From positions 1-40,323 of the forward strand of contig JACQTD010000058.1 of NCBI GenBank assembly GCA_016210985.1: 40,323 nucleotides of DNA, given 5' to 3'. This DNA is from Acidobacteriota bacterium (lineage in GTDB: Bacteria; Acidobacteriota; Blastocatellia; HR10; JACQTD01). Positions 1 to 4,299 of this stretch are shown piece after piece. The notes under the pieces are model-generated. The model was not told where the DNA came from. It did not search any database and saw nothing but the letters and a program-made list of their open reading frames with translations. Position numbers and translations under genes: made by a program. Each line of letters begins with the position of its first letter. The stretch's first letter is position 1.

Positions 1-970
1 ACCGGGCCGGGAGGGTGTAGTTGAAGCGGGCGAGGGCTTCCGGCTGAGCGTGAACAATCTTATCGATCGTCTCACTGCCGTTGGCGCCGGAAAACGGCAG
101 ACGCCCAGTCGTCATCTCGTACAGCACCACGCCCAAGCTAATGAGGTCGGTCCGCTGGTCAAAGGCTCGTCCCAGCGCCTGCTCCGGACTCATGTACGCC
201 ACCGTACCCATCACCAGGCTGGGTTCGGTTGTAGTTGCAAGTACGCCGTCACCGCTCAGCGCGGGCTCCTCGGTTCGGGTCACTCTGGCCAGCCCGAAGT
301 CAACCACCTTCACACGACCGTCAGGCGTGATCATGATGTTGCCGGACTTGATGTCCCGGTGAATGATGCCTTCCCCGTGTGCCTCCTTAAGCGCGTCCAC
401 TACCTGGATACCGATGTCGATGACCTGAGCGTTCTCCAGTGAGCCGGCCTGGAGCCTGGCTGCCAGCGTCTCCCCTCGGACATACTCCATCGCGATGTAG
501 TTCACACCCTCCACGTCACCGATGTCATAGAGCGTGGCGATGTTCGGGTGGCTTATCGCCGAGGCCGCCCGCGCCTCCTGCTGAAAGCGCTTAACCCGCG
601 AGCCATCCGTGGTGAAGTATTCAGGCAGCAGTTTCAGCGCCACCTGACGCCCCAGCCGATGATCCTGGGCCAGGTAGACCTCTCCCATTCCGCCGGCGCC
701 AAGGCGGGACACAATCCGGTAGGGACCGATGTCTTCCCCGATCCTTGACCCGGTCTGTTCTTCAGCCATTAACTCAGCCGCTACATCCACCGCAGGGGCC
801 TCGATGAAGCTCCCCGCCTCCGCGTGCGCATGAAGCATCGCCTCGACTTTCCCACGCATCTCGTCATCGTTCGCGCAGGCTTTGTCCAGCAGTGCGGATC
901 GTTGCTCAGGCTCGTGCCCGAGGGCCGACTGGAAGACATTCTTGATCTTTTGCCAGCGCTCCGGGGTCAT
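1..970 (-). CDS. Hanks-type Ser/Thr protein kinase (partial, runs off left edge)
   Basis: Manual translation from ATG at 970: MTPERWQKIKNVFQSAL... LGAGGMGEVYLA, VALKLL, HRDIKSGN, DFGLA, GTVAYMSPEQ. Frame stays open to position 1; absent from the ORF track because it has no stop in the window. Confidence 0.95.
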   Translation of the reverse strand, partial: MTPERWQKIKNVFQSALGHEPEQRSALLDKACANDDEMRGKVEAMLHAHAEAGSFIEAPAVDVAAELMAEEQTGSRIGEDIGPYRIVSRLGAGGMGEVYLAQDHRLGRQVALKLLPEYFTTDGSRVKRFQQEARAASAISHPNIATLYDIGDVEGVNYIAMEYVRGETLAARLQAGSLENAQVIDIGIQVVDALKEAHGEGIIHRDIKSGNIMITPDGRVKVVDFGLARVTRTEEPALSGDGVLATTTEPSLVMGTVAYMSPEQALGRAFDQRTDLISLGVVLYEMTTGRLPFSGANGSETIDKIVHAQPEALARFNYTLPAR

Positions 971-1018
971 ACACCATGACTCATCATTCCTCACTCCTCA
1001 CGCATCATTCGTCAATCA

Positions 1019-1466
1019 TCACTCGCCACTCATCCCTGTATTCGTGATTTCGCAATAAAGCCATGCGCCAGCAGTCTGCCATTCGCGTTCTACCGTCGCA
1101 TGTGAAATCTGGAGCACCTCGGCCGTCTCAAAGCGACACCCGGAGGGCTCCGCCTCAACGCTTAGCGTGACGATGACTCCGGGCATGGTCCACCAGGACG
1201 CGACGCATCAATTGGGCGGCAACGCCGAAGAAATGGGCTGGATTCTGCCAGCGGATATTCTTGTAATCAATCAGCTTCAGGTACGCCTCATTGACCAGGG
1301 CTGAGGTTTGCAAGGTGTGGCCCGGGCTCTCCCGGCGCATGTAGAGACTGGCGAGCTGGCGCAGCTCCCCATCGACCATCGGAACCAGTTTCTCAAGGGC
1401 TGTCTGGTCCCCATTCCTCCAGTCCAAAAGCAGCTGGGTTACTTCCCCCTGTGAGGATGTCGCCAT
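1019..1466 (-). pseudogene. ECF sigma-70 factor (ECF43/TIGR02999-like), disrupted
   Basis: N-terminal VTQLLLDWRNGD..HTLQTSALVNEAYLKL..FFGVAAQLMRRVLVDHAR; TGA at 1155-1157 in place of the first G of KRGGG; then GGALRVSL and, after a frameshift, region-4 tail ETAEVLQISHATVEREWQTAGAWL ending at 1019. The linker and start of region 4 are missing. Confidence 0.85.
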
Positions 1467-1719
1467 AGCCCCTCATTTGCCTGATCAGATTGGTCTTGCA
1501 AGACGCAAGCATATCACATGCTCTCACCAGCGGACATTCCTGCGAAACCCGGGTAGTGGGTCAGTTTCGATGGAACAACCATGTATTACCATTTCCAAGG
1601 AACCGGATGGAGTGCCAATTCTGTAGATAGTATGAGAAGGCCAGTTTCCACGGAGTACCGGTAAAATGGTCTCCAGATTGAGAAAATCACGGGCTCGAAG
1701 CCCAAGGAGGAAACTGGCC

Positions 1720-2796
1720 ATGACCGAGTATAGCGCAACGATACCGAGCAGGACGATTGGAATCGATTTAGGGGATCAGTACAGCCACTTTTTTGTGTTG
1801 GATGAGGCCGGGCAGGAGGTGGAATCAGGGCGGGTAGCGACCAGCCAGGCGGGTATGAAGAAGTTCAAAGGGATGGAACGGGCACGGATCGTGATCGAGG
1901 TGGGGACGCACTCGCCGTGGGTGAGCCGGAAGCTGGAGGAATGGGGGCACGAGGTGGTGGTGGCCAATGCACGGCAAGTGCACTTGATCTCGAAGAATGA
2001 TCGCAAGAGCGACCGGGTCGATCCGGAGCTGTTAGCGAGGCTGGGGCGGATGGATACGAAGCTGTTGAGGCCGCTTCGGCATCGTGCGGCGAAGGGGCAG
2101 GCGGATCTGGCGGTGTTGAGATCCCGGGATGCGCTGGTGCAGGGGCGCAGTGCGCTGATCAATCACGTGCGAGGATCGGTGAAATCGTGGGGGGCGAGGA
2201 TTCGGAAAGGCTCAGCCGAGGGTTTCCACAAACGGGTCGGGGACATACCGGAAGCGTTGCAGCCGGCGCTGAAGCCGGTGATGCAGACAATCGAGCGGCT
2301 GACGCAGGAGATTCGGCAATATGATCGGAAAGTGGAGAAGATGGGCGAAGCGGAATATCCGGAGACGGCACAACTGCGGCAGATCACGGGCGTCGGGCCG
2401 TTAACGTCGCTGGCGTATGTGTTGACGCTGGAGGATCCGCATCGTTTTCCGAAAGGGCGTACGGTGGGTCGATACCTGGGGCTGACGCCGAAGCAGAGCG
2501 ATTCGGGCGATCAAGCGCCGCAGTTGCGGATTAGCAAGGCGGGAGACCGGATGCTGCGAAGGTTACTGGTCAGCAGCGGACAATACATCCTCGGGCCGTT
2601 TGGGCCGGATTGCGACCTGCGCAGATGGGGGATGCAACGGTATGAGCGGGGAGGGAAGAATGCGAAGAAACGGGCGGTGGTGGCCGTAGCTCGGAAGCTG
2701 GCCGTGTTGTTGCACCGGTTATGGGTCAGCGGGGAGCAATATGATCCCTGGCGCCATCACCGGGGCCAACCGCCGGTTGTCGAAGCCGTCGCCTGA
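1720..2796 (+). CDS. IS110-family DEDD transposase/recombinase
   Basis: IGIDLG, VIEVG, KSDRVD (DEDD), C-terminal GVGPLT..GLTPKQSDSG..RISKAG..AVARKLA; AAGGAGG RBS before ATG 1720 (ORF track starts at 1666). Confidence 0.95.
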   Translation: MTEYSATIPSRTIGIDLGDQYSHFFVLDEAGQEVESGRVATSQAGMKKFKGMERARIVIEVGTHSPWVSRKLEEWGHEVVVANARQVHLISKNDRKSDRVDPELLARLGRMDTKLLRPLRHRAAKGQADLAVLRSRDALVQGRSALINHVRGSVKSWGARIRKGSAEGFHKRVGDIPEALQPALKPVMQTIERLTQEIRQYDRKVEKMGEAEYPETAQLRQITGVGPLTSLAYVLTLEDPHRFPKGRTVGRYLGLTPKQSDSGDQAPQLRISKAGDRMLRRLLVSSGQYILGPFGPDCDLRRWGMQRYERGGKNAKKRAVVAVARKLAVLLHRLWVSGEQYDPWRHHRGQPPVVEAVA

Positions 2797-2899
2797 GGTC
2801 AAAGCGTTAGGTTGGAGGCTAGGGCAACCCTGAAGCCAGGAGTGCCGAGAGAGAACCGTTCGAGCCTAGACGAGGATGCCAAGGAATACCATGAGCGCA

Positions 2900-3070
2900 T
2901 TGCCGGGTCCCGGTGACTGCGGACCTCCCCCAGACTCTACGACCGAACCCAACCGGGTAAGGTCGAGGTCGGGCTGTAGATGGCAGCACCGGAACTTGTC
3001 GAACACCATAGTGCACGTCGTCGCCCAGGGGTCGATGACACCCAAGTGCGAATGGAAGCAGGGCAAGCCA
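2900..3070 (+). ncRNA. Predicted bridge RNA / seekRNA of the IS1111 element
   Basis: Two consecutive stem-internal loop-stem units; loop 1 holds ACCTCCCCC (2923-2931) and CTGTAG (2974-2979), matching both sides of the target; loop 2 holds ATGGAAG (3052-3058), matching the donor junction. RNA boundaries approximate. Confidence 0.75.
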
Positions 3071-3271
3071 AAGGTGGAATCTCGAGGGCATCAAGCGCCA
3101 AGGCAAGGCATGGCCATTAAGGCACGATATCTGTGAGGGGCTGAACCCTGATCAGCAGGTATGACCGACCGAACGCACAGCCACAACGCAAGGGGACCTT
3201 AAGGGCGCAGTGAGAGGTGGTCCCGAAAGCACTACCAGCAAAGACCGTTGGATCTGCCCGCCACGTCGGGC

Positions 3272-3277
3272 TTGACA
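3272..3277 (+). promoter_or_regulatory. Outward-facing -35 hexamer at IS right end (circle-junction promoter half)
   Basis: Perfect TTGACA just inside the right inverted repeat; on the predicted circle it sits 18 bp from GATAGT supplied by the core and left end. Confidence 0.7.
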
Positions 3278-3295
3278 AGAGGCCTTCTCATGGAA

Positions 3296-3400
3296 GGGGG
3301 AGGTGGCCCTGCCTCCCCCGTCCTTGCGGTCAGGGAAGAATCGAGTCGGGTAAACAGCTCGGCGCAAACCCGGGGGAGGCAGGGCCACCTCCCCCTACAG
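3296..3400. repeat. GTAG-class REP doublet (REPIN-like), left arm interrupted by the IS
   Basis: 3371-3400 is the exact reverse complement of CTGTAG (1621-1626) joined to 3297-3320: CTGTAGGGGGAGGTGGCCCTGCCTCCCCCG; each arm has an internal GGGGGAGG/CCTCCCCC palindrome. Confidence 0.85.
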
Positions 3401-3456
3401 CCGATCCGGGAAGCCGGCTTGTTCGCTGAGGCCGATCTCTTTAAGATGATCGCGCA

Positions 3457-4299
3457 ATGTTTCTTCGGTTCATTGCCGTGACCATCCTGAGCGCGCTGTT
3501 GATCGGCGGCAACCTGCCGTATGGACAGGAGAAAGGCAGAGATAAAGGCAAGGATAAGGAGCCCCCGCCGGTCAAGCTGACGAGAAAGGGTGACAAGCGC
3601 GCGTTGGAGGCTGCCGACCGGGCTTCAGACGCCTATGGCGGTTCCGGAGCGCTCGCTCTTTTCCGTCAGAAGGGGCAGCTTCGGGGTATCCTGAAAATCT
3701 TTACCGATGAAGATACCCACAGGGAAGGCAGCATCACGATCCGGTTCAAACGCACCCTGGGCAAGATGGATGACTTTAAGCGAGTCGATATCGAACTACC
3801 GGGAGCGCCTATCCTGTCCATCGGGTACGACGGCGAGAAGATCTGGGGGGCCGAGAACGGCCAACCTACCGTCCTGCGCCTGCGGGCAGAACAGATGTTT
3901 CAGTTGGAATTGATCAACCACTACGAAACCCTGTTGCGGAATCGTGAGCTGGTTCACGAATTGAAGTATGTCGGTCGTGAGAAGCGGTCGGGTATCGAGG
4001 TCGACATCATCGACCTGGTCGCCGGCTCCGGAACGCCCTTACGGAACTTTGTCAGCACCAAGACGTCGCGGGTGCTTCGCGTTGAATACGACGTGGCTCT
4101 ACCCCGCGATGAGCGACCCATCCGCATTCAGGAAGCCTACTTCGATTTTCGCGTGGTGCAGAATACCCTCGCGCCATATCGCGTGGAGCGTTACGAGAAC
4201 GACCGACGCGTCCAGGAGATCCAATTCACCGAAATCGCCTTCGGCATCGCCATTGACGATGCCGTCTTCAAGTCCGCCGACGACCTAAAATCGAAATAG
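3457..4299 (+). CDS. Exported hypothetical protein, possibly LolA-like/outer-membrane lipoprotein-sorting fold
   Basis: 280-aa ORF with signal peptide and beta-rich body ending YFDFRVVQNTLAPYRVE..IDDAVF, a pattern common in LolA-like proteins. Confidence 0.6.
   Translation: MFLRFIAVTILSALLIGGNLPYGQEKGRDKGKDKEPPPVKLTRKGDKRALEAADRASDAYGGSGALALFRQKGQLRGILKIFTDEDTHREGSITIRFKRTLGKMDDFKRVDIELPGAPILSIGYDGEKIWGAENGQPTVLRLRAEQMFQLELINHYETLLRNRELVHELKYVGREKRSGIEVDIIDLVAGSGTPLRNFVSTKTSRVLRVEYDVALPRDERPIRIQEAYFDFRVVQNTLAPYRVERYENDRRVQEIQFTEIAFGIAIDDAVFKSADDLKSK

Follow-up and report, generated by a model that had tools for sequence, protein, structure and literature searches.

How does an insertion sequence (IS) that interrupts a short hairpin repeat find its site, and can its specificity be read from the element itself? 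The question was raised by a window of 40,323 nt (the whole stretch of DNA that was analysed: contig JACQTD010000058.1 of GenBank assembly GCA_016210985.1, from an Acidobacteriota bacterium), in which an IS of 1670 bp lies at 1627-3296 of the forward strand. The window is contig C337 of a metagenome-assembled genome (MAG; G000, 3.85 Mb in 347 contigs, 79% complete). A first-pass annotation, made from the letters alone, had described an IS1111-type element inserted exactly in the GTAG of a repetitive extragenic palindrome (REP), with ends at 1625-3294 or 1627-3296, an AG core, no further target duplication, and an empty site that could be rebuilt from the window. On the evidence below, the element is very probably an intact IS of the IS1111 group, placed in the AG of a hairpin arm's GTAG by a DEDD/serine recombinase that would be guided by a two-loop RNA from its 3' region.

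The insertion site was reconstructed by script. The left fragment of the interrupted arm, CTGTAG (1621-1626, + strand), was joined to the right fragment (3297-3320, + strand; GGGGAGG TGGCCCTG CCTCCCCC G, itself a hairpin), and the resulting 30-mer was the reverse complement of 3371-3400 at 30/30 positions. The latter segment is the intact partner arm, inverted (- strand) and 50 nt away, and represents an unoccupied perfect target. AG was present twice (+ strand), at 1625-1626 (the final two bases of GTAG, 1623-1626) and at 3295-3296. The element can therefore be drawn as 1627-3296, counting the right-hand AG, or equivalently as 1625-3294 (1670 bp in both cases); AG is its core, and nothing else is duplicated. 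Its removal with one AG kept restored the arm. Because the 24 nt to the right also make up the other arm of the inverted pair, information on the insertion point is confined to the 4-6 nt that precede the IS, and a match of these by chance is expected at ~1 in 256 to 4096. Support for the left flank came from the element's own RNA module, which carries GGGCTGTAG.

The interior of the IS was complete once in the MAG, and further ends of the same IS were found at the ends of contigs C50 and C78. The second left-end (LE) junction, at the end of C50, reads ...GGCTGT-AG followed directly by ATAGTATGAG; the second right-end (RE) junction, at the end of C78, reads GGAAG followed by GGGGAGGTGGCCCTGCCTCCCCCG. 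The junctions of this 100%-identical element (the second copy being split over C50 and C78) agreed at both left ends (2/2) and both right ends (2/2), and only the AG core was shared. Insertion is site-specific and orientation-specific, with no duplication beyond the short core. The ends, core and lack of further duplication proposed in the first-pass annotation were borne out by the rejoined 30-mer, and the two genome searches that it had suggested came out in its favor. The C50/C78 copy had the same ends and the same TGT-AG-GGGGAGG flanks, and the 30-mer was not unique: two exact uninterrupted copies were found in the MAG (C337:3371-3400 and C78:6089-6118, both partner arms of occupied doublets), among 12 arms at ≤6 mismatches, the two interrupted arms included.

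The two flanks of the window IS may not belong together. It is quite possible, though we lean the other way, that C337 contains a false join over the 1.67-kb repeat; the sequence up to 1626 and the sequence from 3297 on would then stem from two insertions, each with a real junction. In intact copies of the repeat unit that contains the arms (C339, C183), it is the GTGCGCC side of the spacer that lies next to the left half L; in the window, L has the CTTGCGG side as its neighbor. If C337-left were paired with C78, or C50 with C337-right (or C50 with C183), the usual order would in each case be regained on one side, and in a MAG of 347 contigs the other IS ends do stop at contig ends. Neither alternative pairing, however, restored a complete unit; moreover, the window spacer resembled the others at only 73-80%, and a spacer could be inverted by way of the 30-bp inverted arms. 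Each junction was confirmed by short public contigs (X2 record 13 spans 1590-1650 with no difference), the two sides not being linked by them. A possible mis-join leaves the target, ends and core as they are, since the two left junctions agree with each other, as do the two right ones. The rebuilt empty site of the first-pass annotation thus holds as a target sequence, while its physical locus is insecure.

The transposase gene (tnp; 1720-2796, + strand) is intact and encodes 358 amino acids (aa). AAGGAGG (1704-1710) precedes ATG 1720; the longest open reading frame (ORF) runs from 1666, and alignment with the transposases of relatives begins at residue 12 of the 358-aa protein. In the 376-aa ORF, PF01548 (DEDD_Tnp_IS110, the N-terminal RuvC-like domain) was matched at residues 31-171 (E 3.4e-17, 63.1 bits, cut-off 29), and PF02371 (Transposase_20, C-terminal) was matched with E 2.5e-17 (63.4 bits, cut-off 21.3). 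IGIDLG at residue 13, VIEVG at 58 and SDRVD at 97 presumably hold the catalytic residues. The C-terminal half of the protein aligned with the IS621 transposase structure 8wt6 (E 4e-8) and also with the ISCro4 transposase structure. GLTPKQSDSG at 254-263 fits the motif GL-P----S(t)G described for IS1111 transposases (Siddiquee et al. 2024), with its conserved Ser-Gly.

Subterminal inverted repeats were found at both ends. The left repeat, ATGAGAAGGCC (1632-1642, + strand), begins 5 nt inside the left end and is the perfect reverse complement of the right repeat, GGCCTTCTCAT (3281-3291, + strand), which is followed by GGA and the AG core. The left repeat was kept in 30 related loci with transposases only ~43-55% identical, and its 11 bp lie within the 7-17 bp given for the subterminal repeats of the IS1111 group (Durrant 2024). 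Non-coding DNA amounted to 93 nt before tnp (1627-1719) and 500 nt after it (2797-3296); in the IS1111 group the longer non-coding region lies downstream of tnp (Siddiquee 2024). The element has the defining features of the IS1111 group that were tested, except for a quoted length range considered below, and the earlier IS1111-type assignment is upheld by PF01548 and PF02371, the 11-bp repeats, the long 3' non-coding region and the GL-P----SG motif.

The nearest public proteins were 86, 84 and 78% identical to the transposase and are unnamed. Transposases of GTDB representatives were ≤55% identical, and plasmid-borne IS110-family transposases, the only named set searched, ≤31%. A DNA-level search of 60 other genomes of the order and class returned 1 weak match (E 7.8e-4, 33 nt); judged by this search, the element is not shared at the DNA level with those genomes. 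By ISfinder's identity rule, the element would probably count as a new IS.

The region downstream of tnp contains a predicted long seekRNA or bridge RNA of ~167 nt (2900-3066, + strand), in which an outer stem (TTGCC, 2900-2904, with GGCAA, 3062-3066) encloses two stem-loops. The first is the predicted target-binding stem-loop (2910-2992, + strand, 83 nt), the equivalent of a short seekRNA, with a stem of 2910-2920 with 2983-2992 and a bulged A at 2916. It carries the top-strand guide ACCTCCCCC (2923-2931, + strand), a 9-nt complement of the core G plus GGGGAGGT (3296-3304), and the bottom-strand guide CTGTAG (2974-2979, + strand), which is identical over 6 nt to the left flank plus core (1621-1626). 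The slightly longer GGCTGTAG (2972-2979) matches 8 nt of the left flank of the C50 copy. Since two guide stretches in the 3' RNA match the two sides of the target, the specificity of the IS can be read from the element itself. The 3' strand of the second loop, AATGGAAG (3051-3058, + strand), is the presumed donor-side guide; it closes with the same 7 nt as the right end (3290-3296).

The top-strand match lay 5' of the bottom-strand match in the window element and likewise in 32 tabulated insertions. The same order has been described for the seekRNAs of ISEc11, ISPa11 and ISKpn4, which are 82-96 nt long (Siddiquee 2024), and at ~167 nt the window module resembles the published 145-170-nt long seekRNA or two-loop bridge RNA. 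The top-strand guide CCTCCCCC recurs as the 3' half of the hairpin that the arm itself forms (3297-3400), so guide binding would compete with the intrastrand hairpin of the target. When the MAG was searched by nhmmer with the module alignment, only C337:2900-3088 and C145:303-496 matched.

Relatives were fetched with their flanks in two sets: 44 loci from Acidobacteriota and other MAGs (transposases 43-55% identical), and 80 metagenome loci (50-59% identical, plus one at 86%). The module was found in 107/134 sequences (the window, a mini element of the same MAG described below, and 132 fetched loci). In 32/32 insertions for which both ends were found (46 examined), ATGAGAAGGCC and GGCCTTCTCATGGAAG, the motifs at the ends, were identical, and so was the AG core. 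In an alignment of 21 distinct module sequences, compensatory changes were seen in 8 of the 37 predicted pairs; the stems were otherwise invariant, and the guide stretches were variable. The outer stem has U-A in 2 sequences and C-G in 15 at its base (columns 2/174). The target-binding stem was invariant in 21/21 except at the compensatory columns 12/97 (A-U in 14, C-G in 6). ATGGAAG of the second loop was present in 20/21 sequences, the remaining one having GTGGAAG.

Guides and flanks of these insertions were then compared. Among the 32 insertions, which hold 16 distinct guide pairs, the mean longest match between a guide and its own flank was 7.0 nt on the top strand and 5.6 nt on the bottom strand; in 908 non-cognate pairings the means were 3.8 and 3.6 nt. 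The window guides, set against the flanks of the 31 other insertions, matched over ≤5 nt (top) and ≤4 nt (bottom). Guides follow flanks across the relatives.

An RNA-guided mechanism has been described for the family (Durrant 2024; Siddiquee 2024), and RNA production, enzyme binding, circle formation and the chemistry of the window element would be expected to follow it. The partner of the DEDD/serine recombinase (1720-2796) would be an RNA transcript of ~2900-3066, in the non-coding DNA 3' of tnp. In the first loop, ACCUCCCCC would pair with the core G and GGGGAGGU in the top strand, on the right-hand side of the crossover, and CUGUAG would pair with the bottom strand to its left (CTGT plus AG). 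The second-loop stretch AAUGGAAG, whose last 7 nt are also the last 7 nt of the right end, would presumably bind the excised circle where its ends are joined. With strands exchanged at the AG common to donor and target, the element would be inserted in one orientation, with no duplication beyond the core.

Several results weigh against an RNA-guided element of the IS1111 group or narrow the support for it. At 358 aa, the transposase is 8 residues over the 330-350 aa quoted for IS1111 transposases (Siddiquee et al. 2024), a range that is descriptive and not a definition. The public contigs searched (four runs of one study, all as Logan contigs) contained neither the true empty site (1626 joined to 3297) nor a circle joint from RE to LE; the joints 1620 to 3294 (TTT between) and 1620 to 3396 (opposite strands) that did occur in them are those of the paralogous units of C339 and C183. 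No public run recorded as RNA contained the stretch. Rfam 15, run on 1500-3500, gave no match to a bridge-RNA or seekRNA family; its only matches were of miRNA type, sub-threshold and on the REP doublet, and are explained by the long hairpin of that doublet. The single-sequence fold of the module was unexceptional (z = -1.74, 10/200 shuffles folding as well), and most stem pairs are uninformative because the stems are so conserved. The bottom-strand match at the window locus is only 6 nt, and the core A is left unpaired by the top-strand guide here, the guide of the relatives ending in CCT. A complement of the left end was sought in the second loop of the window element, of L076 (the metagenome locus at 86%), of the mini element and of the relatives; in the window element, the 5' strand of this loop had no convincing one. 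In the second loop of the relatives, 6/7 pairs can be formed between CCCAACT and AG-ATGGG, without covariation with left-end variants. Donor recognition is consequently only half explained. Lastly, as the relatives are kin and hold 16 distinct guide pairs, the number of independent events in the guide comparison is nearer 16 than 32.

It might be supposed instead that the protein chooses the target, or that the arm is recognized by its hairpin shape, the matches in the 3' region being chance or hitch-hiking sequence. The matches are indeed short (9 and 6 nt), RNA evidence was absent from the public runs that hold the stretch, and the identity of CCTCCCCC with the arm's own 3' half could mean that GC-rich, REP-like sequence was simply picked up. 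However, the matches lie at homologous positions of a conserved stem-loop and change with the flanks (16 guide pairs, 7.0/5.6 against 3.8/3.6 nt), siblings and relatives with the same ends target quite different sequences, and programmability has been shown experimentally for the family (Siddiquee 2024). We consider this explanation very unlikely. Very unlikely, too, is the reading that the hairpin arm is part of the element (a terminal hairpin, with mobility of IS200/IS605 type or of the type of REP doublets forming hairpins, REPINs) and so no target: both RE junctions do carry the identical 24 nt plus partner arm, and the genome has several Y1-transposase genes with REPs of their own, but arms without the IS occur in C339, C133, C19, C211 and others, siblings whose right end is the same over its last 41 nt adjoin unrelated hairpins, the arm is completed exactly by the left flank, and the two IS copies occupy opposite arms of homologous doublets.

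The repeat that was hit by this RNA-guided element, as we take it to be, resembles a REP in structure. A REP is GTAG (GT(A/G)G) followed by an imperfect palindrome, and the arm is CTGTAG followed by GGGGGAGG-TGGCCCTG-CCTCCCCC. Inverted doublets of the arm, 50 nt apart and so REPIN-like, were found in C337, C78, C339, C183, C133 and C19; REP doublets separated by <51 bp are reported in the ISPpu9 paper. The target repeat is low-copy, not present in hundreds of copies as classical REPs are. It also lies in a larger unit resembling a miniature inverted-repeat transposable element (MITE). The left half of this unit is seen at 1552-1620 (+ strand) of the window, where it begins with the terminal inverted repeat (TIR) GGTAGTGGGTCAGTTT and has copies 93-95% identical in C339, C183 and C236. 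A complete unit at C339:8460-8720 (~260 bp) has inverted GGTAGTGGGTCAGTTT at both ends and the arm doublet at its center, and parts of the unit flank the doublets in C183, C133 and C50 as well as the window IS (1552-1620). The TIR was matched 32 times at ≤2 mismatches and bounds other interiors too (e.g., C242:6303-6539 and C184:6768-7003). No cognate transposase for the TIR unit was identified.

PF01797 (Y1) was matched 8 times in the MAG (C147, C173, C17, C166, C318, C213, C221 and C52). None of these 8 contigs carries the arm, so that no REP-associated tyrosine transposase (RAYT) was found for arms of the window type in this 79% complete MAG; the flanks of 5/8 Y1 genes were read and hold other palindromes. 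The five strong Y1_Tnp (IS200/RAYT-like) genes, on C173, C166, C147, C17 and C318, each come with their own family of palindromic repeats. The REP target named in the first-pass annotation is accordingly sound as GTAG plus a palindrome in inverted doublets, and less so in that the repeat is low-copy, sits inside a MITE-like unit and has no RAYT found beside the arm.

The MAG also holds siblings of the window element. The last 41 nt of sibling 'B' ends are those of the window's right end, and the left end reads ATGGT against ATAGT. Their right flanks are other hairpins: AG is followed by CCCCGGGTGG... in one, by CCCCGTCCGTCAGGGCGGGG in another and by CCCAGGGC... in a third. One B insertion lies on C173, within a REP array directly downstream of a Y1-transposase (RAYT-like) gene; in C173:1-1286 the Y1 gene is followed by three tandem REP units, with the sibling IS in the last. 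A sibling derivative of 517 bp (C145:123-639, - strand, locus L006) has lost tnp and has kept both ends and the complete two-loop RNA module. The guides of this mini element, GCCCTGGG and AATAG, fit its own site ATAAT-AG-CCCAGGGC, of which uninterrupted copies were found in C11 and C26. On the metagenome contig L076, with a transposase 86% identical, the guides are CCCGCCCGC and CGATAG, and the visible left flank is ATAG. By their sequences, L076, the mini element on C145 and the IS of the window are a case of natural retargeting among elements with near-identical ends; all three aim at repeats of (G/A)TAG plus a hairpin.

We would go further only tentatively, and with considerable doubt, in proposing that this one genome harbors a radiation of IS1111-type siblings whose guides have been swapped across repeat families, together with a tnp-less mini element with a self-matched guide module. 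If the mini element is moved in trans by a sibling transposase, it would amount to a self-addressed MITE, non-autonomous and with its own address, and recombination between siblings would be a ready route to retargeting. In a limited search of the literature, no description of a guide-bearing mini element, that is, a non-autonomous element carrying a bridge RNA, was found in the text accessible.

Two remnants were also recorded. At the contig end C183:8697-8766 (L005), IS positions 621-690 (inside tnp) are fused directly to GTGGCCCTGCCTCCCCCG of an arm, with GGAG shared at the joint; this is either a third copy deleted from mid-tnp through the right end plus 7-8 nt of target, or an assembly artefact. 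At C160:6841-6992 (- strand, L004), a left-end remnant of 152 nt (92% identical, left flank ...CTGCTGA-AG) ends inside the start of tnp. It lies outside any REP or MITE unit and is an old, decayed insertion.

REP-specific elements of IS110/IS1111 were already known (IS621, ISPa11, ISPpu9/10 and ISRm19). ISPa11, an IS1111-family element of Pseudomonas aeruginosa, sits, like the window IS, at a fixed position near the 5' end of its REP without a conventional direct repeat (Tobes & Pareja 2006), and its downstream non-coding region gives a 96-nt seekRNA with the top-strand match 5' (Siddiquee 2024). The two differ in host phylum, the relatives of the window IS being in Acidobacteriota and other MAGs, and in target, which is a low-copy doublet in a MITE-like unit for the window IS and a genome-wide REP family for ISPa11. 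ISPpu9 and ISPpu10 of Pseudomonas putida KT2440 are, like the window IS, REP-specific with a 2-bp repeat at the insertion point, and modular, transposase-less derivatives are present in that strain as in the MAG. The ISPpu9 bridge RNA, however, is reported to precede tnp in the transcript, whereas the window module is downstream of tnp; likewise, the tnp-less C145 derivative keeps the guide RNA, whereas what ISPpu9 has in its ssr9 module is another small RNA. ISEc11 and ISXne4 resemble the window siblings in having conserved seekRNA stems, replaced guides and different targets (Siddiquee 2024); unlike them, the window siblings share the exact last 41 nt of the right end within one MAG or study. 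IS621, of the IS110 group in E. coli, shares with the window IS a REP target, a DEDD plus serine recombinase, a two-loop bridge RNA and a 2-nt core, but its bridge RNA is in the left end and its subterminal repeats are 2-3 bp (Durrant 2024). The guide order of the IS110 type is reversed relative to that of IS1111 (Siddiquee 2024), and it is only in the C-terminal half that the IS621 and window transposases align (E 4e-8).

Two observations concern the surroundings and the ends of the IS. TTGACA at 3272-3277 (+ strand), near the right end, is a possible -35 hexamer. Across the RE-LE joint computed by script, TTGACA, 18 nt and GATAGT (hexamers read by eye) form a possible promoter by match to the consensus, one that would be formed only on the circle; a promoter scan of the linear 1500-3500 found no promoter-like site. 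The TTGACA of the relatives sits 3 nt further in and fits such a junction promoter poorly. The IS lies in intergenic space, and no ORF is interrupted. Upstream, as judged by eye from the translations, are a Ser/Thr-kinase-like ORF (2-994, - strand) and a small ORF (1155-1466, - strand) that resembles the start of an extracytoplasmic function (ECF)-type sigma factor.

The window IS is a new example of a mechanism already described and not a new kind of element, and the picture of how IS110/IS1111 elements work is left unchanged. What it adds is a natural set of donor, core, target and guides, fully specified, for an IS1111-type recombinase of the Acidobacteriota, a phylum distant from the proteobacterial elements of earlier studies. 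The relatives, about a hundred in number, combine a common scaffold with differing guides and are useful for mining and cataloguing programmable recombinases and for annotating such MAGs. Only in the sibling set and the mini element does the case go slightly beyond the published accounts found, and the clade may be listed in the supplements of Durrant 2024 and Siddiquee 2024. It is this sibling set, with its tnp-less, guide-bearing mini element, that merits most attention from specialists.

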